Counted from the first letter of the stretch, positions 32,706 to 45,614 are shown. The stretch: DNA of 64,000 nt from an uncultured Candidatus Saccharibacteria bacterium (GCA_964646765.1 CAZYIA010000003.1:2815-66814); one strand, 5' to 3'. Notes: generated by a model not told the origin, from the sequence alone. A program made the numbers and translations.

Positions 32706-33188
32706 TTAGAATCCAAGAAGTTCGAGGAACTGATGCGTTTTCTGTTCAACCAGTTCTTGTTCTTTAATAAAAGGAGTAAGTTTGTCCTTAATTAAAGCTG
32801 GTGGGACTTCACCGATAGGAATAGCGACGAGAGGCATAACTTTACGGTTGGTCATGATAAGTAGATGTCGGTCATGGCCAGGGGGTACGATATCTGCTTC
32901 CTCAATCCAAAATGCGGAAATCGTTGAATATAAAAAGAGGGTTTCGTTAAGTCGAAGTCCACGGGCGCCAAGAGTTACGGTAAGTAGGCGCGGTGGGCGA
33001 GCAGTAAAGTAAAGTAAACTACCAACGCCAATTAACAAAAGGACGCCGAGGAGGAAATTTCCAAGAACAATAGAAGCAATAATGGCAATGAGGGTAACAA
33101 GCCCGATACCCCAATACCAGTCGTTTGAGTGGTTGCGGGGAGTATATTCGGGGATGCTCCACGAGAGTGCGTCGGGAGATTCTTGCAT
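32706..33188 (-). CDS. Hypothetical membrane protein (two TM helices + cytoplasmic domain)
   Basis: 160 aa with two adjacent TM helices. No recognisable motif. Confidence 0.45.
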   Translation of the reverse strand: MQESPDALSWSIPEYTPRNHSNDWYWGIGLVTLIAIIASIVLGNFLLGVLLLIGVGSLLYFTARPPRLLTVTLGARGLRLNETLFLYSTISAFWIEEADIVPPGHDRHLLIMTNRKVMPLVAIPIGEVPPALIKDKLTPFIKEQELVEQKTHQFLELLGF

Positions 33189-33216
33189 GTCACTATTGTA
33201 TCAAAAGAGTGAAAAC

Positions 33217-33456
33217 TTAGGAATGAGCTTCGTCTTGGTAAAAGTTTTTAGAGATCCAAAAGCGGAATGACGATAAGCATGAGCGCAATGAGTAGCAGTC
33301 TTTTGCTTTTGTTTCCTCAAGTGCTTGAGCAAGTTTTTCCCGAGAGGGGAGTGCTTCATTTTTTGCGCTGGCAAAGAGAGCTGCAATATGAGCTTCTTCA
33401 GCTTCGGTTACATCTTCTTTACCTCGATATTCAGTTGTAGTTGTGGTCTCCTTCAT
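33217..33456 (-). CDS. Small acidic protein translationally coupled to the ECF sigma factor (candidate anti-sigma factor)
   Basis: Its start overlaps the sigma-factor stop (ATGA-type overlap on the minus strand). 79 aa. The anti-sigma role is inferred from position only. Confidence 0.3.
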   Translation of the reverse strand: MKETTTTTEYRGKEDVTEAEEAHIAALFASAKNEALPSREKLAQALEETKAKDCYSLRSCLSSFRFWISKNFYQDEAHS

Positions 33457-34013
33457 AAGAGATCGTTACTACGGAACCGGTCTCGCAACTTGCGAAGCGC
33501 GCGGCTCTGTATTTGTCTAATATTTACTTCAGTCTTGCCCGTTTTTTGAGCAATTTCTTGGTTTGTAAGTTCATCGATGAAACGCATCGTGATAATATCG
33601 CGCTCATCACCGTGCAAAGTGGCAAGTGCTTCACGTACCAACTCTGAGGTCTCACGTTCTTCGGTTAGGTTTTGTGTGCCTGGTGTACTCTCGTCTAACT
33701 CTTTAATAAGGTCATCGCTCGGGATAGCCCGGTGAGGCTGTGAGCGAAAAAAGTCGATAACCAAGTTGCGGGCAGCAGTGTAGAGATACTTTTCTGGCGG
33801 GACTCCTCCACTGTAGGCGCTTAAACTGCGATACAGTTTGAGGAATAAGGTCTGGGTCAGATCTTCGGCCTCGCTTTTGCTCCGCACCCGGAAGAAGATA
33901 AATCGGTACAAGGGGGTATAGTAACTAAGGTAAATGGCCTCAAACGCTTCTTGGTCGCCATCCCGGTACCGCTCGATTAATTCTTTCAGGGCTATTTTTT
34001 CATTCAATCCCAT
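33453..34013 (-). CDS. RNA polymerase sigma-70 factor, ECF subfamily
   Basis: Region 2 (YLSYYTPLYRFIFFRVRSKSEAEDLTQTLFLKLY) and region 4 (DIITMRFIDELTNQEIAQKTGKTEVNIRQIQSRALRKLR). Confidence 0.8.
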   Translation of the reverse strand: MGLNEKIALKELIERYRDGDQEAFEAIYLSYYTPLYRFIFFRVRSKSEAEDLTQTLFLKLYRSLSAYSGGVPPEKYLYTAARNLVIDFFRSQPHRAIPSDDLIKELDESTPGTQNLTEERETSELVREALATLHGDERDIITMRFIDELTNQEIAQKTGKTEVNIRQIQSRALRKLRDRFRSNDLL

Positions 34014-34969: not shown

Positions 34970-36253
34970 TTAATTTAATGTTTTGGCTAAAGCCTGAGCA
35001 AATGTTGCTGCTTCAGTATAAGTATTATATGCAACTGGAGCAGCACGTAAAATATCGCCACGAATTTCACCGAAGCAATGGTGTTTTTTAGCCAAAGTTT
35101 CTAACACTCCACTCGCAGCATGCTGAGGGGTTGTGAATGAAATCTGGCAGCCACGGTGCTCCCATGCTGTTGGTGTAATAATTCCCACCTGAGGAATGCA
35201 TGAAAGTAAATCATACAAGTAGGTAGAAATTGTTTTGTGCTTCTCTTCAATTGCCGCAAAAGAATATTGTGTAACGATTTCCAAATTAGCCTTTAACCCT
35301 AAAGAATTAAAAATAGGGTCGTTGCTGGCTAAAAATCTCCGCGCACCTTTCGCTGGTTTATAGTTTTCTGTCGGTCCAAATCGGGTATCTTTGTCGATTC
35401 CCCACCAACCAAGCAGTAACGCCAGTTCTGCAATCAGTGCTTCCTTAATGTAAAATCCGGCTACTCCGCCAGGTCCTCCATTTAAGTATTTGTAAGAGCA
35501 GAAGGTGCTGAAATCTATATTCCAGTCGGTCATATGAAGCTGCATATTTCCGATACCGTGAGCGAGGTCAAGACCAATGAAGCCTCCGTTTGCATGTACC
35601 TGTTTTGCTAAATCTTGTACGGGGAAACGTTCTCCGGATTTGTAATTTACCATTTCAAAAAACCCAAGAGCGAGGTTTTTAGTTTCTCCAATAATGCCGC
35701 AGAGTCGGGCAAAATCGTACGTTTCTCCACCGCGAGGGTTAGCAATAACCAGGAATTCATCAATATCCATTTTCCCGTGGATGATTCGTAGAGCCGATTT
35801 GATCGACTCCAAATCAGAAGGGAAGATAGTTGCTATTGTTACTACTTTTGTTCTTCCTTCCTGTTTCTTTTTCCAAAGCGCAAACAGGATAAGAAGGAAG
35901 TTGTTGATACTCAATGAGTTACCGATAACGGCTTCTGGCACATCACCATTACAGCCAAGTAACTCGGCAAGCGGTTTTTCGTATTGCTCGCCATATATCC
36001 ACCAAGGTTCTTTACCTTCTAAGTGTCCATCATGGCCAAGGTTTCCCCATTTATGTGCTTCGTTGGCAAAAATAAGAGGGAACCGTTTGGGCATAAAACC
36101 CAAAGAGTTTCCTCTAAGATCTGCTATCCCACTAGGGCGGGAAAATTCTTGCACATAATTTTTTAAAGGGTCAGATTCATCTAATTGAAGAGCTTTTGCA
36201 AGCAGGTCTTTCCATTTTTTGTTTGTCATTGTTAAAGGATTTAGTATCGTCAC
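34970..36253 (-). CDS. kynU: Kynureninase (PLP-dependent, class V aminotransferase fold)
   Basis: 427 aa. The N-terminus MTNKKWKDLLAKALQLDESDPLKNYVQEF and PLP-lysine region (..CSYKYLNGGPGG..) are typical of KynU. Confidence 0.65.
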   Translation of the reverse strand: MTILNPLTMTNKKWKDLLAKALQLDESDPLKNYVQEFSRPSGIADLRGNSLGFMPKRFPLIFANEAHKWGNLGHDGHLEGKEPWWIYGEQYEKPLAELLGCNGDVPEAVIGNSLSINNFLLILFALWKKKQEGRTKVVTIATIFPSDLESIKSALRIIHGKMDIDEFLVIANPRGGETYDFARLCGIIGETKNLALGFFEMVNYKSGERFPVQDLAKQVHANGGFIGLDLAHGIGNMQLHMTDWNIDFSTFCSYKYLNGGPGGVAGFYIKEALIAELALLLGWWGIDKDTRFGPTENYKPAKGARRFLASNDPIFNSLGLKANLEIVTQYSFAAIEEKHKTISTYLYDLLSCIPQVGIITPTAWEHRGCQISFTTPQHAASGVLETLAKKHHCFGEIRGDILRAAPVAYNTYTEAATFAQALAKTLN

Positions 36254-36371
36254 TCTACAATATTTTTCTCTAAAGTAAAGAAAGGCTAAAATAGGAAGGG
36301 AAACAAAATAATGTTTAAAGCAGGTAAAAAAGTTTAGAAGAAGTTTAGAAATTTCTTGGTACGCTATACGT

Positions 36372-37037
36372 ATGAAAATTCTTGTAATTGAAGATGAGCC
36401 AGATATCGCCGCTTTTATTAAGAAAGGGCTCGAGGCAGAAACCTGTCTTGTAGAACTCGCTGCGACAGGCGAACGAGGTATTTCACTCGCACACTCATAT
36501 ACATATGATGCTATTGTTTTAGATTTTCATTTACCTGATATGCGTGGAGACGAAGCGTCTGCTCGGATTCGTAAAGTAAAGCCCTCTATTCCGATTCTTG
36601 TGCTCTCTGTCGAACGCAATATGGATATTAAATTGGATATGCTTTCCATTTGTGATGACTATCTTACGAAACCGTTTTCTCTTCGTGAGCTTGCCGTTCG
36701 GCTTCGTGCTCTTACTCGACGTGGGGAAGTGCTTCATGGAGATAGATTAGAAGCTGGTGGCCTCACTATGGATTTGGCAAAGCACTCAGTTTCTCTTGAA
36801 GGCAAACCAATTCAGCTTCGCAATAAAGAGTTTGCTCTTCTTGAGTACTTTATGCAGCATCCTGATATCGTTCTCTCACGAGAAATGATTTTGGATCACG
36901 TGTGGGATATGAATGCTGATCCGTTTACTAATACTGTTGATACTCATATTCGATTACTTCGTAAAAAGTTGGAAGACAAACGTCACACCTTTATCCATAC
37001 TGTTCCCAAGCGAGGGTATAAGTTTGCTATCGCTTAA
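36372..37037 (+). CDS. OmpR-family two-component response regulator
   Basis: Receiver domain (MKILVIEDEPDIA...DAIVLDFHLPDMRGDE) plus a winged-helix C-terminus (..PKRGYKF). Confidence 0.85.
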   Translation: MKILVIEDEPDIAAFIKKGLEAETCLVELAATGERGISLAHSYTYDAIVLDFHLPDMRGDEASARIRKVKPSIPILVLSVERNMDIKLDMLSICDDYLTKPFSLRELAVRLRALTRRGEVLHGDRLEAGGLTMDLAKHSVSLEGKPIQLRNKEFALLEYFMQHPDIVLSREMILDHVWDMNADPFTNTVDTHIRLLRKKLEDKRHTFIHTVPKRGYKFAIA

Positions 37038-37046
37038 ACGGGGGTA

Positions 37047-37077
37047 GAAAATGAACGCATAGAAGCGTTCATTTTTT
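37047..37077 (+). terminator. Rho-independent terminator after the response regulator gene
   Basis: gaaaatgaacgc-atagaa-gcgttcatttttt. Confidence 0.65.
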
Positions 37078-37142
37078 GTTTAGAATTTCTTTACATCAAG
37101 TTACATACAATTAAAACAATTTTTAAAACCAAAAACATTTTT

Positions 37143-38132
37143 ATGGCTCAGCAACTCCCCGTGTATGATCTACACACGCTTCCGGAGAATCCGGAACCCC
37201 ATGGTATTTACATTCTTAAACCCAACAATTTCTCGGAAGAGTTTTACCGAGAACGAACGCGACGTAATATCGATTGGATAACTCTTGAAGAGCAAGAAAT
37301 GCTCCGCAATTCTACTGTTGGTATATTCGGTGCTGGAGGTATGGGTGGCACCATCGTTGCTATTCTTGTCCGTTTAGGTATTGGTACCGTTATTCTTTTT
37401 GAACCGGAAACGTTTGATGTTTCAAATATTAACCGTCAATTTGGTGCAACAAAGCAAACGGTAGGGAAGTCAAAAGCTTTCGAAACCGCTCGCATGGTGC
37501 GTGCTATTACTGATGATACTACTTTGATTATTGCCGACGTTGGTTTAAGTGAATCAAATTATGCTTCGCTACAACCCTTTATTACACGTTGCGATATTAT
37601 TCTTGATGAGATTGAATTTTGGGCACTTGGTTCACGGCTTATGCTTCATGACGTTGCCCGAGAGCACAACATTCCTATCATTAATTGCAATACTGTTGGT
37701 CATCGTACCAATCTTTGGTACTTTTCCCGTGCCGGCAAGTCACTTTCTGAGTGTATGCATATCACAACAAGCGATGCTTGGGTATTACAGAAACGGATCC
37801 ACAAGCAGAAGGCGGGGAAAGATGAAATTGCTTTAGTGAAAAATAAAGTGATGAAAATATTTCTGCCGGAAGTTCCGGAGTACTCCGCTACCCCTGAGTT
37901 TTGGAGCACCGCTTCTAATTGGGATACTCGAATTAACCAAGGTGAAGCCATTGTTATTGCAACAAATCCGCCTATGGCTTCAGGTTTTGCGGCTAATCAC
38001 ACGCTATTTCAATTACTACATCAAAAGTCTTCAATAAAGCGAACCTTTATTCTGCCCCCTGAAATGCCCGGGTATATCATGTTTGATGCAGCATTTATGG
38101 AAACCAAACGTATCACAACGCAATGGTGGTAA
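37143..38132 (+). CDS. ThiF/MoeB/E1-like adenylyltransferase with an atypical N-terminal lead (~55 aa) and C-terminal extension (~130 aa)
   Basis: Rossmann GxGxxG VGIFGAGGMGGTIVAIL, conserved ..FDVSNINRQ.. (Arg finger), K...A and DEIE. No CxxC zinc motif. The C-terminal 130 aa have no obvious similarity. Confidence 0.65.
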   Translation: MAQQLPVYDLHTLPENPEPHGIYILKPNNFSEEFYRERTRRNIDWITLEEQEMLRNSTVGIFGAGGMGGTIVAILVRLGIGTVILFEPETFDVSNINRQFGATKQTVGKSKAFETARMVRAITDDTTLIIADVGLSESNYASLQPFITRCDIILDEIEFWALGSRLMLHDVAREHNIPIINCNTVGHRTNLWYFSRAGKSLSECMHITTSDAWVLQKRIHKQKAGKDEIALVKNKVMKIFLPEVPEYSATPEFWSTASNWDTRINQGEAIVIATNPPMASGFAANHTLFQLLHQKSSIKRTFILPPEMPGYIMFDAAFMETKRITTQWW

Positions 38133-38159
38133 TTCTTTCAACCAAAAATCCCTCTGACA

Positions 38160-38768
38160 ATGGAACAAGAATACATAATCCGCATACCCCACACTACTGA
38201 AGAACGTGACCGCGCAATTGAATACGTTTCTTCTCATATGTACAAGAAGCACGGTGGTCATCCACCTAAAGAAACTACCCCTCCGCATCTTTTTATCGCC
38301 CTCGATGGCGCGGAAGTTGTTGGTGCTGTTGGTATAGAATTTGGCACCAAAGATACCCCGTTACCGTTTGAAGAGCTTTACCTGTTTACTCAAGAGATGC
38401 TTCCTGTACAGTATCAGCGCGAAAAAACAATTTACTACTCTCGATGGAATTCGTCCCGCCCCAATATTGGTCCACCACTCTGGCTTGCTGCAACTGAATA
38501 CGCACTTTCTTGCGGCATAGTACATGGCGTTGCTATTACTAAAAAAGACATGGTTGCTTACTGTAAACAATCGCTTGGTTTTGATTGGCGAATTGTGTCT
38601 GGGGCAACCATTAACTCCCAGTACGTTCAGGCTAATGAAACAATTTATTTTTTTAGCCAAAATCCACCTCTCTTATGCTTCAGCGTCTTACCTGATGATG
38701 TTCTACTTCTCCGCATCCTCGTTCGCGATATTTGCCTTAAGCAACGAATTCATGTTGAGCTTCCTTAA
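38160..38768 (+). CDS. Hypothetical GNAT-fold-like (N-acyltransferase/autoinducer-synthase/thermostable-hemolysin-like) protein
   Basis: 202 aa. HLFIALDGAEVVGAVGIEFG resembles the beta4 strand/core of acyl-CoA N-acyltransferase-fold proteins. It lies 27 nt downstream of the ThiF-like gene. The assignment is by motif only. Confidence 0.3.
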   Translation: MEQEYIIRIPHTTEERDRAIEYVSSHMYKKHGGHPPKETTPPHLFIALDGAEVVGAVGIEFGTKDTPLPFEELYLFTQEMLPVQYQREKTIYYSRWNSSRPNIGPPLWLAATEYALSCGIVHGVAITKKDMVAYCKQSLGFDWRIVSGATINSQYVQANETIYFFSQNPPLLCFSVLPDDVLLLRILVRDICLKQRIHVELP

Positions 38769-38828
38769 CCTTTCTGGGGCCCGTCTATCTGATAGTACGG
38801 GCCTCTCTTTATCTTCAGAGTTTTTACA

Positions 38829-40823
38829 ATGTTACAATATTCTCCAATGCCATTTATTACTCAAGAAACGGTACTCGTGATCGTAAGCTCTTTTAACCTA
38901 TGTATTGGGATCTTTGTGTTTTGGTATCGGCCAGAACGTATCGTAAATCGAATGCTCTGTGCGATAACTCTCGGTATTGCGCTATGGGGCTTTGGGCTCA
39001 CACTACTCACTGAAACACATGATTTTTCATATAACACCGTAATGTTTTACGGTTTCTCACTCTTTATTTTTGGCTTTGTTACGTTTGCTCGGACGTTTCC
39101 CAACACTACTTTTATTCCAAAAAAATTTTATCTTATTTTTCTTCCGCTTGCCGGTGTTCCACTCGCGGCCTTATTTGGTTGGATTATAAAAAGTGCAACC
39201 TATGACATAAGCAATCATCCAGCACCAGTAAATGGTCCACTCTTTCCGTTTTTTGTGGCGCTATCGCTTTTTTATTTTTTGCTTGGCTTTTATTTTTTCA
39301 GACGCACGTATCGAACTTCTGTTGGTGTTGCTCGTATCCAAATCTATTATTTACTGTTCGGTCTTGGGGTACTCCTGCTTTCGACACTCATTTTTGACAT
39401 GCTCTTACCAATTCTTGGTGTTTTTAAACTTAATTTCTTAGGACCCATCTCATCTATCGTTCTTACCGGGATGACCGCTTATGCGATTGTGCGACACCAA
39501 CTTATGGATATTCGTATTATCATCCAACGCTCACTCATTTATGCGATTCTTCTAGGGCTCACGGTTGCATTCTATCTTGCTTCCGTTTCTCTTATTGGTT
39601 TTTTGTTTAATAGTGCGACAGGTACCAGTACTCTTCTTGGAGGTGCAATTACCACGTTGTTCGGTATTTTTACGGTGCCGCTGCTCGAACAATACTTTCG
39701 AAAAATCACTGACCCAATCTTTTTTAAAGATCACTATAACTATGCAGAAGCATTGCATCAGCTTTCAAAGATTTTATATACCAGTGTTCGGCAAGGGGAT
39801 ATTATGCGAGATACCTCAGCACTACTTCGAACACTTTTTAAAACTGAATATGTAGCATTCCGACTTATTGCTGAGAGCACCACATGTCCCTTTCCACCTA
39901 AGCAGGTAGCACTCATAGTTCCTATCCTCTTTGAACAAAAAGAAATTGGCCAACTTGAACTTGGCGAAAAACGTTCAGGAGAACGGTATAGTGCAGAGGA
40001 TCATAAACTTCTAGAAACCTTCGTCTTTCAAGCGGCGGTGGCTCTTGAGAAAGCAAAATTATATGAAAAAGTAGAAGAATATTCAGGAACACTTGAGCAG
40101 CTTGTTGAAAATCGTACTCAAGAAATTAGAAAACTTCAGGAAGACCAGAAGCAAACTATGATTGATATTTCTCATAATCTTCAAACTCCACTGGCAATTA
40201 TTCGCGGTGAACTCGAGCTTGTTACAGAGTCAGCTATGGATGCTGACAAAGTGCGCACGGTTAAAAAATCGCTCGACCGGGTATCACAATTTATTCGCCA
40301 GCTCTTACATTTGGCCAAGCTTGATAACTCCGCGTTTGCTGTGCGAAAAGAACCCGTTAATCTTACAACACTTGTGCGTGACCAAGCTGAGTACTTTGAG
40401 GTTATGGCAAACGAACAAGGAGTAGAGATCAAAACAACTCTTACTCCCAACGTATACAGTATTGGTGATAAACGATTACTCGAGGAACTCCTCACCAATT
40501 TGGTCGCCAACTCTCTCAAGTATCGACGTACTGACGTGGCAAGTCATGTTGAAATTTCCCTCACAAAAAATCAAACAGATATTATTCTTAGTGTTCGTGA
40601 TAATGGCTTAGGTATTCAAAAAGATATACTGCCTAATATTTTTACTCGTTATGTCACAGCTCGATCGTCGCCCAACTTAGAAAGTACCGGGCTCGGGCTC
40701 GCTATTTGTAAAAAGATAGTCCTGCGACACGAGGGGACAATTAGCGCAACTAGCCAGCCAGGGAAAGGGACTGAAGTTACTATTACCTTTCCACTTAGTT
40801 CTCATAATCCAGAAAAAGCTTGA
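38829..40823 (+). CDS. Sensor histidine kinase with an N-terminal ~8-TM sensor module (7TM-HK type), a GAF-like linker, HisKA and HATPase_c
   Basis: The first 330 aa contain about eight TM helices. H-box DISHNLQTPLAIIRGELE. N, G1 and G2 boxes (NLVANSLKY; DNGLGI; GLGLAICKKIV). Confidence 0.8.
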   Translation: MLQYSPMPFITQETVLVIVSSFNLCIGIFVFWYRPERIVNRMLCAITLGIALWGFGLTLLTETHDFSYNTVMFYGFSLFIFGFVTFARTFPNTTFIPKKFYLIFLPLAGVPLAALFGWIIKSATYDISNHPAPVNGPLFPFFVALSLFYFLLGFYFFRRTYRTSVGVARIQIYYLLFGLGVLLLSTLIFDMLLPILGVFKLNFLGPISSIVLTGMTAYAIVRHQLMDIRIIIQRSLIYAILLGLTVAFYLASVSLIGFLFNSATGTSTLLGGAITTLFGIFTVPLLEQYFRKITDPIFFKDHYNYAEALHQLSKILYTSVRQGDIMRDTSALLRTLFKTEYVAFRLIAESTTCPFPPKQVALIVPILFEQKEIGQLELGEKRSGERYSAEDHKLLETFVFQAAVALEKAKLYEKVEEYSGTLEQLVENRTQEIRKLQEDQKQTMIDISHNLQTPLAIIRGELELVTESAMDADKVRTVKKSLDRVSQFIRQLLHLAKLDNSAFAVRKEPVNLTTLVRDQAEYFEVMANEQGVEIKTTLTPNVYSIGDKRLLEELLTNLVANSLKYRRTDVASHVEISLTKNQTDIILSVRDNGLGIQKDILPNIFTRYVTARSSPNLESTGLGLAICKKIVLRHEGTISATSQPGKGTEVTITFPLSSHNPEKA

Positions 40824-40905: not shown

Positions 40906-41352
40906 TTGTTCGTATCTATTTTCATTATTTCAAAATTTAAAAATTCAGATTTAAACCCCAAGACAGTTATGATGACATTACTTACCATTACGGCACACGT
41001 TGCCCCGCTAATTTTTTTGTTGACCCTCGTTTGCTTGATTGGCAATTCGCGTATCGCGAACCATCAACTTAATGGGCAATTTACCTTAGGTTTTTGCATA
41101 TCCCTTAGTGTATTCTCGCTTTTTGGCATTTTCGCCAGTATAAAAGCCAGTCTTCCTAACGCATATGCAGTATCCTATGCAGCGTTTACCCTCGGTAACG
41201 CCTGGGTGGTATTCCAAATATACTTTGGCATATCAAAGGTTTCTAAAGAAGAAGCAGAGCAGCAAACTCTTATTGCTCCCGTGCCTGTTGGCAGAGACTG
41301 GGACCCACGTTCCACTCAAAACAAAGAACATTCCGCTTCAGTAGAAGCATAG
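40906..41352 (+). CDS. Hypothetical membrane protein
   Basis: Four TM helices. Non-ATG (TTG) track start. The more likely start is the internal MMTLLTIT. Confidence 0.4.
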   Translation: MFVSIFIISKFKNSDLNPKTVMMTLLTITAHVAPLIFLLTLVCLIGNSRIANHQLNGQFTLGFCISLSVFSLFGIFASIKASLPNAYAVSYAAFTLGNAWVVFQIYFGISKVSKEEAEQQTLIAPVPVGRDWDPRSTQNKEHSASVEA

Positions 41353-42821: not shown

Positions 42822-45614
42822 ATGAAAATATCCCACCTTCGATCGCTCGTAGTCGCCTTTATTATTTTAGTAGCGTTCAGTTTCACTACTCAGCAAGCGT
42901 ATGCTTTCTCAGGTGGGTCGGGTACCGATGGTGATCCGTATCAAATGACGACGTGTGCTGATTTTGAAAGTATGCTCTCTAGTCCAATGGCGTCGTTTAT
43001 TTTTGAAAACGATATCGACTGTACTGCGGATGGAAATGCGGTTGGCTTCGCCACTATTTTTGGAGGGCACATTAATGGTAATGGTCACAAATTAACCTAC
43101 GCACTTACTACAACCGGTCCGTCATCATCATGGGCGCTCATTGAGGATTTCTCAGGGATTATTGAAAATTTGTGGGTTGATGGCACCGTTACCGACACCT
43201 ATGGTTCTGATGTATTGAGTGGCCTTATCTATAGTATGGATAGTGGAACCATTTCGAATGTAAAAAATACGGTTACGATTGTTGGTGGCACAGGAACCGG
43301 CTTGGTTGGTGGTTTTGCGTCCTATATGCAGGGCGGAACTATTGAAGATTCCTACTTTAGCGGAAGTATTGTTACTAACGGCGATACTGTTGGTGGTTTA
43401 GTTGGCCGAATGAACGCGGGAACAATTACTAATTCCTATGCCGCTGGAACCGTTGAAGGGGTTAATAATGTCGGTGGGCTGGTTGGTTACTTAGATAGCG
43501 GAACCATTACTAACAGTTTTGCGTCACCAACAATGAGTGGGACAACCCTCGGTGGTTTAGTTGGTTGGTATCAGAGCATGGTTGGCGGGGGAGTATTTTC
43601 GGGAGATTATTGGGACATTACTCGTACCACACAAACAACATGTAATCAGCAAGGCGATATCATTTCCGGTTGTACTGGTGTAAATAGTGGAAGCAGTAGC
43701 CCGAACTATTTTACCGACAATACTAATGCGCCACTTTCAGCATGGAACACTTCTACCTGGACGTTCTCGCCCGGAAATAGTCTTCCCGAATTAACCCTGT
43801 TTTCTTCAGATTCAACATCATTTATTACTACCTGGAAAACTAATAACCCAGGTGTATCAGCGAATAACCAAATTACTATCCCAACCTTTTCTGGGGCAAC
43901 ATATAACTACAACGTTGATTGGGGCGATGGAGAGACAGACACTGGAGTAACCGGGAATATAACGCATACTTATGCGACAGCTGGAACGTACACAGTAAAA
44001 ATTTCTGGAACGTTCCCGCGCATTTATTTTGATGATGGCGGGTATACTGACGCACAAAAAATTCTTTCGATCGAGCAATGGGGAAATAATCCATGGACTT
44101 CTTTTGGTAATTCCTTTGCTGGTTGTATTAACCTTATTTTGAACGCAACTGATACACCCGATCTCTCAAACGTGACCGATATGGGATATATGTTCCTCAA
44201 TGCCACTTCTCTAAATACCGACATCCACACTTGGGACGTTTCTCATGTGCAAAGTATGTATGGAACATTTCAAAGTGCAACCTCATTCAATCAACCACTC
44301 AACAGTTGGAATGTTTCAAACGTTGTGAACATGGGCTATATGTTTGAAAATGCCACTCACTTCAATCAAGATCTCAGTTCCTGGAATACTTCAAATGTCA
44401 CTGAAATGGATTCCATGTTTAACCAAGCAAGTAACTTCAATCAGGATCTCAGCAATTGGGATGTTTCGCACGTAGTAAATATGGGAGCCATGTTTTATGC
44501 AGCGTATGCGTTTGATAACGGCGGAGTGGCACTTACCTGGAATACGGCGAGTGCACAGTATATGAATGGAATGTTTAATTTGTCGCAGTTCAATCAAGAC
44601 ATTAGTTCTTGGGATGTTTCGCACGTGACTACATTTGCAAGTATGTTTAACGCCGACCATGCATTCAATCAGGATATTAGCGGCTGGGATGTTTCGCATG
44701 CCAACGATATGAATTTAATGTTCTATGCCGCTAACGCTTTCAACCAAGACCTCAGTTCTTGGGATGTCTCACATGTGACGGATCTGAGCGGTATGTTTTA
44801 CTTTGCAACCTCATTCAATCAACCGCTCAACAGTTGGAATGTTTCAAGCGCTACCAACATGGCATACATGTTTGCAAACGCAAGTGCCTTCAATCAAAAT
44901 CTTGGTAACTGGAACGTATCGCACGTGACCAATATGGACACTATGTTTGGTGATGCTAGTTCGTTTGATCAAGATATAAGTTCATGGAATATTTCGCATG
45001 TAACAAACATGCTCGGCATGTTTACAAACGTAACGCTCTCCACTGCTCACTATGATGCGCTCCTTACCTCGTGGTCGGTAGAATCGCCAGAGTCCGGAGT
45101 ATCCTTTACCGCGGGTAACAGTTTGTATTGTTCTTCTGTCGAAGCTGCTCGTCGCATACTCACAACGACGTATAGTTGGGCGATCACTGACGGGGGAGTA
45201 GATGGCAGTTGTCCTACAGTTTCTTCAGGTGGCAGCAGTGGTGTCGTTCCCGTCTGGATTTTGCAATCTATGAGTGACCAACTACGTGCAGCTCAGACGG
45301 CTTCTCAGTCAACGAGCGCGGTACCTGCCAATCCAATACCTTCTACCACCGATGCATTTGTGTTTACAAAATATCTCAAGCTCGGGATGACTGACAGCCA
45401 GGTTAAAAAGTTGCAAGCATTCCTCAATGCGCACGGTGCACAAGTTTCAGCAAGTGGAGATGGTGCCCCTGGACACGAAACAACTTCTTTTGGAAAGAAA
45501 ACGCTTAAGGCTCTCGCTCTCTACCAAAAAGCAAATGGTATCAAGCCATCATCAGGATATTTTGGTCCGGTCACAATGAAGCTCGTCAACCAGTTACTCT
45601 CTCAGGAAAAGTAA
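42822..45614 (+). CDS. Giant secreted surface protein with Gly-rich (GGLVG) repeats, a PKD domain, about 11 tandem DUF285/BspA-type repeats and a C-terminal peptidoglycan-binding domain
   Basis: Signal peptide. The PKD-like segment is YNYNVDWGDGETDTGVTGNITHTYATAGTYTVKISG. The repeat unit F...FNQD(L/I)S.W(D/N)VSHV..M..MF is iterated from about 44130 to 45010. The C-terminus FGKKTLKALALYQKANGIKPSSGYFGPVTMKLVNQLL is PG_binding_1-like. Confidence 0.75.
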   Translation: MKISHLRSLVVAFIILVAFSFTTQQAYAFSGGSGTDGDPYQMTTCADFESMLSSPMASFIFENDIDCTADGNAVGFATIFGGHINGNGHKLTYALTTTGPSSSWALIEDFSGIIENLWVDGTVTDTYGSDVLSGLIYSMDSGTISNVKNTVTIVGGTGTGLVGGFASYMQGGTIEDSYFSGSIVTNGDTVGGLVGRMNAGTITNSYAAGTVEGVNNVGGLVGYLDSGTITNSFASPTMSGTTLGGLVGWYQSMVGGGVFSGDYWDITRTTQTTCNQQGDIISGCTGVNSGSSSPNYFTDNTNAPLSAWNTSTWTFSPGNSLPELTLFSSDSTSFITTWKTNNPGVSANNQITIPTFSGATYNYNVDWGDGETDTGVTGNITHTYATAGTYTVKISGTFPRIYFDDGGYTDAQKILSIEQWGNNPWTSFGNSFAGCINLILNATDTPDLSNVTDMGYMFLNATSLNTDIHTWDVSHVQSMYGTFQSATSFNQPLNSWNVSNVVNMGYMFENATHFNQDLSSWNTSNVTEMDSMFNQASNFNQDLSNWDVSHVVNMGAMFYAAYAFDNGGVALTWNTASAQYMNGMFNLSQFNQDISSWDVSHVTTFASMFNADHAFNQDISGWDVSHANDMNLMFYAANAFNQDLSSWDVSHVTDLSGMFYFATSFNQPLNSWNVSSATNMAYMFANASAFNQNLGNWNVSHVTNMDTMFGDASSFDQDISSWNISHVTNMLGMFTNVTLSTAHYDALLTSWSVESPESGVSFTAGNSLYCSSVEAARRILTTTYSWAITDGGVDGSCPTVSSGGSSGVVPVWILQSMSDQLRAAQTASQSTSAVPANPIPSTTDAFVFTKYLKLGMTDSQVKKLQAFLNAHGAQVSASGDGAPGHETTSFGKKTLKALALYQKANGIKPSSGYFGPVTMKLVNQLLSQEK

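Follow-up and report, generated by a model that had tools for sequence, protein, structure and literature searches.

Why should the genes for an adenylating enzyme and an acyltransferase lie between the response regulator and the sensor histidine kinase of a two-component system? The question is raised by positions 36,372 to 40,823 of a 64,000-nucleotide stretch of DNA from an uncultured Candidatus Saccharibacteria bacterium (GCA_964646765.1 CAZYIA010000003.1:2815-66814). We call this whole stretch the window; an original prediction, made by a model from its sequence alone, had described a ThiF/E1-like protein (hereafter E1) and a GNAT-fold protein "inserted between" the response regulator (RR) and the histidine kinase (HK). 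From our analysis, the four genes are an ancestral, conserved cassette of Patescibacteria and not a disrupted two-component system, and the acyltransferase diverges in step with the membrane-embedded end of the kinase. We propose, with confidence that is evenly balanced, that the cassette is an autoinduction-type module, in which the acyltransferase and E1 would be the synthase, kinase residues 1-200 the receptor, and the kinase core and RR the transducer. The parts of the cassette are as follows.

36372..37037, + strand: OmpR/PhoB-type RR, 221 aa (Response_reg 1.4e-20, Trans_reg_C 5.8e-27)
37143..38132, + strand: ThiF/E1-like adenylating enzyme (E1), 329 aa (PF00899 ThiF 4.4e-27)
38160..38768, + strand: predicted LuxI/FeeM-fold N-acyltransferase, 202 aa, starting 27 nt past the E1 stop
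38829..40823, + strand: polytopic sensor HK, 664 aa, with HisKA_7TM, two more hydrophobic segments, a GAF-like region, HisKA and HATPase_c
38829..39428, + strand: kinase residues 1-200, about the first five transmembrane (TM) helices; predicted ligand-specificity region, whose divergence parallels that of the acyltransferase

Open reading frames (ORFs) and Pfam matches bear out the gene order that had been described (RR, terminator hairpin, E1, 202-aa gene, hairpin, HK, with all four ORFs on the + strand), as well as the coordinates, the lengths and the 27-nt gap between E1 and the 202-aa gene. The spacers within the cassette measure 105, 27 and 60 nt, and the search for small ORFs that the original prediction had recommended found none of at least 20 aa in any of the three. 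No second RR, HK, E1 or acyltransferase homologue lies elsewhere in the 64-kb window, and an Rfam scan of the window returned tRNAs only.

The word "inserted" proved misleading when related loci were compared. A scan of one genome per GTDB species gave 80 loci; with the window and locus L001, the close-family loci number 40, and gene calls in the related loci are crude longest-ORF calls. Among the close-family loci with enough sequence on the side concerned, a kinase lies downstream of E1, on the same strand and within the next genes, in 32 of 36, and an RR lies upstream of E1 in 27 of 35. Two contigs with E1s of 59% and 54% identity share the order RR, E1, 200-aa protein, HK, and the genes flanking the cassette of L001 are wholly different from those of the window. 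The pair of ThiF and GNAT proteins thus travels with the two-component system in the close-family Patescibacteria loci, and no two-component system stands beside any of 20 more distant E1 homologues (from Streptomyces, Amycolatopsis, Pseudomonas and others). Recurrence in dozens of genomes places the arrangement far beyond chance. A local rearrangement that left the enzymes functionally unlinked to the two-component system is therefore scarcely credible: the terminator-like hairpin 3' of the RR and the hairpin 5' of the HK would fit it, but the comparative data already contradict it, as the order is kept across dozens of genomes with different flanks and the acyltransferase co-varies specifically with the sensor domain of the kinase, as described below.

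A variant of the cassette is seen in two metagenome-assembled genomes (MAGs) labelled Rickettsiales (L033:7971-13333 and L034). Here the genes after a full-length family E1 (about 40% identity) encode a TonB-dependent receptor, a YfiR/HmsC-like protein and a kinase that is shorter, at 514 aa, and no 200-aa acyltransferase is adjacent. They may represent a Gram-negative rearrangement of this cassette; alternatively, the contig may have been mis-binned.

How closely do the two enzymes belong together? The E1 and 200-aa genes abut or overlap by 4-10 nt in most cassettes. About 10 of the 120 best E1 matches are E1-acyltransferase fusions of 490-527 aa, with ThiF N-terminal and a C-terminal domain that belongs to Pfam Acetyltransf_5, Autoind_synth (PF00765), FeeM or T_hemolysin, and the 202-aa protein of the window directly matches the C-terminal domains of the fusions (P0008, 1.4e-18). 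Loci L019 and L028 hold an E1-acyltransferase fusion within an otherwise normal cassette, and a fusion in the reverse order, FeeM-like then ThiF, is found outside the E1 family. E1 and the acyltransferase are one functional unit. Some cassettes carry tailoring-type genes as well: S-adenosylmethionine (SAM) methyltransferases (Methyltransf_11/25) lie inside cassettes L011, L012, L031 (two), L038 and L041, and that of L031 also holds an ADI/DDAH-like (arginine-deiminase) gene (positions of the extra genes: L031:7161-11138; L011:7092-7823; L038:7130-7837; L041:76-864; L012:2-856). Methyltransferase and ADI/DDAH-like genes are consistent with the tailoring of a small molecule. In another lineage, the enzyme pair is tied to a cyclic di-GMP-binding domain, in a triple fusion of PilZ, FeeM-like and ThiF parts (P0234, 680 aa).

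On what, then, would E1 act? The protein carries the features of the ThiF/E1 superfamily (PF00899), namely the GxGxxG nucleotide loop (GAGGMGG), the N-terminal Arg, NxxRQ (as NINRQ), the conserved Lys and the Mg-binding Asp, here that of DEIE. CxxC is absent, as the original prediction had noted beside the intact motifs, and the three Cys of the protein (150, 182, 204) are not family-invariant. In our structure model (pLDDT 93.1), the ThiF core carries a beta-hairpin specific to the family at its N-terminus and about 130 aa of helical extension at its C-terminus. The NCBIfam equivalogs all score E1 far below cutoff; in that collection, the Rv1355c (TrzS) model reaches 8e-12 and PRK08223 2.6e-32. 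The top PDB profile matches are TcdA and ThiF. TcdA, the tRNA t6A dehydratase, adenylates and cyclises an N-acylated threonine on tRNA. The top structural match is AclA of Tenacibaculum discolor with its substrate (PDB 9egb/9egc/9egd, released 2025), and a literature search on the function of AclA/9egb found nothing. Unlike the window E1, both TcdA and AclA are about 250-270 aa long and lack the C-terminal extension, and the substrate of TcdA is a tRNA.

An exhaustive search of 1.84 billion cluster representatives yielded 9,294 ThiF relatives of E1. Its narrow subfamily comprises 54 clusters at E<=1e-30, and all full-length matches, including the C-terminal extension, fall here; the next 90 ThiF representatives match the core of E1 only. 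Fusions among those 90 join ThiF to a SAM methyltransferase (5), a FeeM-like acyltransferase (4), a nitroreductase (4) or a glycosyltransferase (1), and the ThiF-nitroreductase fusions match E1 at E values of about 1e-21 to 1e-23 with 33-34% identity over the core. A word-indexed search gave 238 E1 homologues, the named ones being Patescibacteria (Paceibacterota, Parcubacteria, Lipton-, Azam- and Nomurabacteria), with a Candidatus Nomurabacteria MAG as the nearest at 59% identity.

The original prediction had listed functions that involve a polypeptide. In these, E1 would act on the C-terminus of the polypeptide to activate it, and its acylation or transfer would fall to the GNAT-fold protein, as in MccB/PaaA-like maturation of ribosomally synthesised and post-translationally modified peptides (RiPPs), in ubiquitin-like (Ubl) conjugation or in an anti-phage E1 module. 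We consider this very unlikely. No beta-grasp Gly-Gly partner was found among the ORFs of the 64-kb window or among the related cassettes, and no ORF of 40-130 aa ending in GG occurs across the window. Rhodanese, E2 and JAB gave no match by Pfam or PADLOC at the locus, nor among the 90 nearest E1 relatives, and no RiPP recognition element (RRE) domain was detected at the cassette. We rejected a Ubl or sulfur-carrier pathway on the absence of a GG-ending ORF, of CxxC and of a conserved Cys; a RiPP precursor (MccB/PaaA type) on the absence of small ORFs from the cassette spacers; and a defence system on the PADLOC results, which gave weak matches to the E1 core only and nothing for the 202-aa protein. 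The nearest ThiF relatives, moreover, bear fusions of a small-molecule type. From the missing carrier, Cys, E2, JAB and rhodanese, together with the fusion partners of its relatives, we favour a small molecule as the probable substrate of E1. The statement that no carrier, E2, JAB or peptide precursor lies nearby thus stands by Pfam, PADLOC and ORF scan, and the MccB-like peptide adenylate, Ubl-like and defence functions that had been offered as candidates are unsupported; the synthesis of an N-acyl amino acid or signal, offered beside them, is the one we favour. Nor did E1 turn out to be an ordinary MoeB/ThiF in an unconserved setting: it comes without carrier, CxxC or rhodanese, its adjacency is conserved, and it occurs in fusions.

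The partner of E1 is nearly an orphan by sequence. A word-indexed search found 3 homologues of the 202-aa protein and later 9, its best Pfam match is FeeM at E=0.068, which is below cutoff, PF00765 does not match it, and NCBIfam gives nothing. The structure model (pLDDT 93.5, from 19 sequences) has its closest matches in the synthases of N-acyl-homoserine lactones (AHLs) and in FeeM, with the LuxI/FeeM variant of the GNAT fold. The earlier call of a GNAT/autoinducer-synthase core is therefore upheld by structure and not by sequence, and the unrelated fold that had been considered was not what the modelling returned. LuxI proteins conserve an N-terminal acidic/aromatic cluster and an E-x-S-R motif. 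The profile of the 202-aa family reaches TofI at E=0.095; Arg95, the sole near-invariant residue of the family, lines up in TofI with the Arg of the LuxI motif E-x-S-R, of which the 202-aa protein keeps the S-R. We predict that the protein is an enzyme like the N-acyl amino acid synthases and the half of the synthase that determines specificity, and that E1 adenylates its product at the carboxylate.

A more familiar reading would be canonical AHL quorum sensing, with the 202-aa protein as a SAM-using AHL synthase and the ThiF-like gene as an unrelated passenger. AHL synthases are indeed the best structural matches, and some of the fused homologues pass PF00765 Autoind_synth. Bernard et al. (2020) described 36 LuxI homologues in bacteria of the candidate phyla radiation (CPR), 18 of them adjoining a "putative sensory kinase", and proposed that these pairs are complete AHL quorum-sensing systems (PMC7567580); OGF73591.1 and PIZ44308.1 are examples of their accessions. 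The LuxI/kinase synteny that they reported, in Parcubacteria-type genomes, probably overlaps our cassette; ThiF has 0 occurrences in their text and supplements, which leave fusions, the RR and co-variation unmentioned (PMC7567580). We nonetheless hold the AHL reading to be decidedly unlikely. That the ThiF-like gene is no passenger follows from its being the best conserved enzyme gene of the cassette and from its translational coupling or fusion, in both orders, to the acyltransferase. Pfam gives no LuxI match for the window protein, which also lacks the acidic N-terminal segment that few members keep; set against LuxI AHL synthases and FeeM, it shows marginal sequence similarity (E about 0.1), its family mostly has Tyr or Gln in place of the Glu of the motif, and a ThiF partner is needed. 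In addition, FeeM and TyzA, which have the same fold, make N-acyl amino acids and not AHLs (PMC10404671).

A closer precedent is found in the oxazolone pathways, which comprise OxzA/OxzB of Pseudoalteromonas rubra, TyzA/TyzB/TyzC, and TrzA/TrzS of Mycobacterium tuberculosis. The accessions of OxzB and TyzB are A0A5S3UR53 and P95234. In these pathways, an N-acyltransferase of the FeeM/AHL-synthase fold (OxzA, TyzA, TrzA) converts acyl-CoA to an N-acyl amino acid, a ThiF-like enzyme with ATP then cyclises this to an oxazolone, and a flavin oxidase of the nitroreductase superfamily desaturates the ring (bioRxiv 10.1101/2020.06.11.147165; PMC10404671; PMC12856293). In TrzS, the ThiF part acts first, and disabling the oxidase leads to a build-up of the saturated ring (PMC12856293). 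Acid and methanol both hydrolyse oxazolones (PMC12856293). According to a 2025 review, oxazolone formation is the only validated non-RiPP role of a ThiF-like enzyme (PMC12596934). Like OxzAB, TyzACB and TrzAS, the window has an acyltransferase of FeeM/AHL-synthase fold adjoining a ThiF-like enzyme, without a sulfur carrier, and both ThiF-nitroreductase fusions (the OxzB/TrzS architecture) and FeeM-ThiF fusions occur among the nearest relatives of its E1. Unlike those systems, the subfamily of the window E1 is narrow, has a C-terminal extension of its own and has the acyltransferase as fusion partner, and the enzyme pair is embedded in a two-component system; no regulator or receptor for OxzAB, TyzACB or TrzAS was met in the accessible text of those papers or in our literature search.

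The CPR cassettes differ from the oxazolone systems also in having no fused or adjacent nitroreductase-superfamily flavin oxidase (FDO). Using the nitroreductase halves of P0219 and P0242, a phmmer search of every ORF in 84 sources, of which 83 are the loci and one is a 21-kb slice of the window, found none fused or adjacent in any CPR cassette and gave matches only in L068 (Elusimicrobiota) and L072 (Chitinophagales). By analogy, the window pair most likely works like the oxazolone enzymes, and our best reading of the product is an ATP-activated or cyclised N-acyl amino acid. As no flavin oxidase is present in the CPR cassettes, the product would therefore be a saturated ring or a derivative of it, unlike the known unsaturated oxazolones.

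More distant E1 homologues are found in settings of their own. In Pseudomonas syringae (L071:6847-12820), a homologue of about 28-33% identity sits in an apparent biosynthetic cluster with an alpha/beta hydrolase, a major facilitator superfamily (MFS) transporter, an Acetyltransf_5 GNAT protein, a class-III aminotransferase and a haem-oxygenase-like di-iron protein, and L074, L075, L078 and L083 are similar; we found no published description of the L071 cluster. In Herbaspirillum (L064:7144-9777), Actinopolyspora (L065:6905-9826) and L066, an E1 homologue forms a trio with a helix-turn-helix (HTH) regulator and an aspartate/ornithine-carbamoyltransferase-like protein. This trio suggests a ThiF enzyme that acts on an N-carbamoyl amino acid, with TcdA-like chemistry on a free metabolite. 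Together, the P. syringae and carbamoyltransferase contexts hint that this ThiF neighbourhood generally partners N-acylating or N-carbamoylating enzymes.

What ties the enzymes to the kinase, other than gene order? We compared pairwise distance matrices from the cassette alignments of RR, E1, acyltransferase and kinase in Mantel tests on 28 cassettes, with 19-28 loci entering the tests. Mean pairwise identity is 0.56 for the RR, about 0.49 for E1, 0.37 for kinase residues 431-664, 0.33 for residues 246-430, 0.32 for residues 1-245 and about 0.20 for the acyltransferase, whose alignments are near the twilight zone, a noise that weakens a correlation and does not create one. Distances of the acyltransferase and of kinase residues 1-245 correlate at r=0.73 (p=1e-4, 28 cassettes) in the Mantel test, which removes phylogenetic non-independence only incompletely; controlling for E1, the kinase middle region, the kinase core and GC difference leaves a partial r of 0.69 (p=2e-4). 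The acyltransferase shows no significant correlation with the kinase middle region (r=0.07) or with the catalytic core (r=0.14). When seven outlier loci are left out, r is 0.48 (p=1e-4) for the sensor region, against 0.17 and -0.08 for the other kinase regions. In a sliding window, the acyltransferase signal lies at kinase residues 1-180 (r=0.57-0.68) and is about zero past residue 240, and over the same stretch the correlation with the kinase core climbs from about 0.1 to above 0.6. RR distances correlate with those of the kinase core (r=0.70, p=1e-4) and do not follow those of the acyltransferase (r=0.03).

Three simpler causes were considered. A GC artefact was rejected, as |dGC| correlates at r <=0.22 with every distance matrix and leaves r=0.69 when used as a covariate. 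The explanation that both partners are merely fast-evolving was rejected as well: the middle region of the kinase has diverged as much as its TM region (identity 0.33 versus 0.32), yet gives r=0.07 with the acyltransferase. Windows of the E1 C-terminus, which is equally adjacent to the acyltransferase in the DNA, reach only r=0.27-0.41, and this weakens pure DNA linkage as an explanation without fully dismissing it. The cassette therefore contains two co-evolving halves, the acyltransferase with the sensor helices and the kinase core with the RR, a pattern that would be expected if the acyltransferase sets the identity of a ligand that the transmembrane domain reads. As to RR and HK, the original prediction had allowed for a non-cognate pair; the correlation of the RR with the kinase core and the lack of any other RR or HK in the window show that the two behave as cognate.

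In L005, L009 (upstream, opposite strand) and L032 (downstream), a second homologue of the cassette kinase, of 684-697 aa, lies nearby, and that of L032 is accompanied by a 530-aa RR-like ORF. These second kinases could be paralogous receptors.

How might the cassette be controlled? Its spacers and the region 5' of the RR gene hold the following elements.

36331..36350, + strand: AGTTTAGAA twice, both copies exact, as direct repeats whose starts are 11 bp apart; the pair ends 21 nt short of the RR start codon
37046..37081 (hairpin 37046-37077), + strand: intrinsic-terminator-like hairpin with 13-bp stem and U run (dG -16.7 kcal/mol, z -4.35)
37077..37111, + strand: TGTTTAGAA, TTTACAT and TTACAT at 10-11-bp spacing, abutting a TACAAT -10-like hexamer, 3' of the RR terminator and before E1
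38776..38805, + strand: GC-rich 13-bp hairpin in the acyltransferase-HK spacer, with a weak U tract (dG -19.9, z -3.3)

Folding thus recovered both hairpins that had been placed after the RR and before the HK, and 0 of 200 shuffles matched either one. The first is terminator-like and sets the RR transcript apart from the downstream operon, and comparable hairpins 3' of the RR gene are visible in L004, L014 and L036; the second is possibly an attenuator or an element for mRNA processing or stabilisation. The two repeats before the RR gene are the only exact AGTTTAGAA copies in the 64-kb window and form a putative binding site of the OmpR-type RR, for autoregulation, while 37077..37111 is a putative RR-dependent promoter of the E1-acyltransferase-HK operon. 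The motif TTTAGRA occurs in the RR-E1 spacers of 12 of 24 loci, with 13 matches against 0.66 expected, and an extended two-repeat pattern has 7 matches against 0.08 expected in the same 24 loci, figures whose background is mostly coding sequence, so that the fold-enrichment is overstated. Judged by their sequence and position, the TTTAGRA repeats would fit an OmpR/PhoB-type box that drives both the E1-acyltransferase-kinase operon and the RR gene, giving positive feedback.

Taking these results together, we propose a scheme of five steps. First, the 202-aa LuxI/FeeM-fold enzyme would N-acylate an amino acid or a related amine, as its fold and homology suggest. Second, by analogy, the ThiF-like enzyme would use ATP to adenylate the N-acyl amino acid's free carboxylate, giving an azlactone/oxazolone-type ring, as the ThiF parts of OxzB, TyzB and TrzS do, or an otherwise activated product. 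Third, the hydrophobic product would be recognised by about the first five TM helices of the adjacent kinase, in keeping with their co-diversification with the acyltransferase. Fourth, the kinase would phosphorylate the OmpR-type RR by standard two-component chemistry. Fifth, as the motif enrichment suggests, the loop would close in positive feedback, with the RR binding the TTTAGRA repeats that lie 5' of both the RR gene and the E1-acyltransferase-kinase operon. Under this scheme, the acyltransferase and the sensor half of the kinase would diversify jointly, like the synthase/receptor specificity pairs of agr/com-type loci.

This scheme recalls several known circuits. agrBDCA and comQXPA are peptide quorum-sensing systems with a polytopic kinase, and LuxM/LuxN and CqsA/CqsS are autoinducer pairs with a membrane kinase. 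As in these systems, signal enzymes, a multi-pass membrane HK and an RR are found in one locus, the synthase and sensor co-diversify apart from the core, and a putative RR box precedes the operon. The predicted signal differs, however, in being an N-acyl amino acid derivative and not a peptide, an AHL or a hydroxyketone; the cassette has no protease, precursor or exporter, and its proteins are unrelated in sequence to those of the known circuits.

Another possibility is that the cassette remodels envelope lipids. The kinase would sense the membrane or envelope, the RR would turn on E1 and the acyltransferase, and the N-acyl amino acid or oxazolone-type lipids would stay in the membrane of the producer; the co-variation would then mean that the sensor monitors the lipid as feedback or docks the enzyme. 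We judge this somewhat unlikely. It fits an identical gene anatomy and a cassette without an exporter, and kinases with intramembrane sensing that monitor the state of the membrane are well known. Tyrazolones and tryptazolones, moreover, were recovered chiefly from cell pellets (PMC10404671; PMC12856293). On the other hand, a structural lipid pathway would not be expected to diverge in parallel with a receptor domain, down to about 20% identity, in a cassette whose E1, RR and kinase core are conserved, and synthase genes in a kinase operon behind an RR box are typical of an autoinduction loop. Readings other than those discussed here retain a small share of the probability.

Several points weigh against the autoinduction-type module that we prefer. 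The Glu of E-x-S-R is Tyr in the window protein and Gln in most relatives, and the acidic N-terminal insert missing from the window protein is kept only in L009, L032 and L036; catalysis by the acyltransferase may therefore differ from that of LuxI. The cassette has neither an exporter nor a flavin oxidase, and a known unsaturated oxazolone is excluded as its product. To our knowledge, CPR bacteria are generally thought to be without fatty-acid synthesis, which bears on the acyl donor. The co-variation could come from contact between enzyme and kinase, or from block-wise recombination of adjacent DNA, and not from ligand recognition, and the coding background of the motif counts is a further weakness. 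Each functional step, whether chemistry, ligand binding or DNA binding, is one that we infer, and the sequence would fit action between cells as well as action solely within the producing cell.

Does the module, then, carry a message between cells? We tentatively put forward the possibility that it serves true cell-to-cell communication in CPR/Patescibacteria and that its autoinducers belong to a new class: N-acyl amino acids cyclised with ATP, such as a saturated azlactone/oxazolone, or a methylated derivative. If it were so, the 7TM kinase would be the first receptor identified for such molecules, the joint diversification of synthase and sensor would yield specificity groups ("pherotypes") like those of agr, and a signalling role would be assigned to the oxazolone-type lipids of Mycobacterium and Pseudoalteromonas. 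For the authors of the mycobacterial work, what the products do physiologically is "a major unresolved question" (PMC12856293). In the cassette, the enzyme logic of the oxazolone pathways is hard-wired to a dedicated sensor kinase and regulator, with a sensor half that co-evolves with the acyltransferase, and the purpose of the molecules thereby becomes a hypothesis of ligand and receptor that can be tested directly.

For CPR bacteria, with their tiny genomes and their dependence on hosts, we know of no signalling circuit that has been characterised experimentally. A self-contained, conserved module of four genes, small enough for heterologous reconstitution, would be a practical entry to CPR signalling, and a domain-resolved co-variation profile offers a cheap way to nominate ligand-binding regions in orphan kinases. 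The logic of ThiF plus acyltransferase is already known from the oxazolone work, as are LuxI-like genes beside kinases in CPR from the 2020 study. Within the literature searched, the combination of a ThiF-acyltransferase pair with a kinase in a fixed four-gene architecture appears new, as do an E1 subfamily that has an extension of its own and comes without the oxidase, its fusions with the acyltransferase, and co-variation specific to the sensor.

The genes around the cassette were also considered. Directly 3' of the kinase, at 40906-41352 (+ strand), lies a hydrophobic ORF of 148 aa (called as 127 aa) without a Pfam match; it is present only in the near-identical contigs L002 and L003, and its absence from the P0004 and L001 cassettes led us to leave it out of the unit. 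Directly 5' of the RR gene and divergent from it, 34970-36253 (- strand) encodes a kynureninase-like class-V aminotransferase (Aminotran_5 and KYNU_C), which is syntenic in the closest relative and not in L001 and so stands outside the cassette. Further upstream, 32706-34013 (- strand) holds an extracytoplasmic function (ECF)-type sigma factor of 186 aa, then ORFs of 79 aa and 160 aa, the latter with hydrophobic segments. The set probably forms a sigma/anti-sigma unit, and synteny with the P0004 contig extends to it. Finally, 42822-45614 (+ strand) encodes a secreted-looking protein of 930 aa with many DUF285 repeats and PKD-like and peptidoglycan-binding matches (Pfam), which may serve a CPR cell attached to its host as a surface or adhesion protein.

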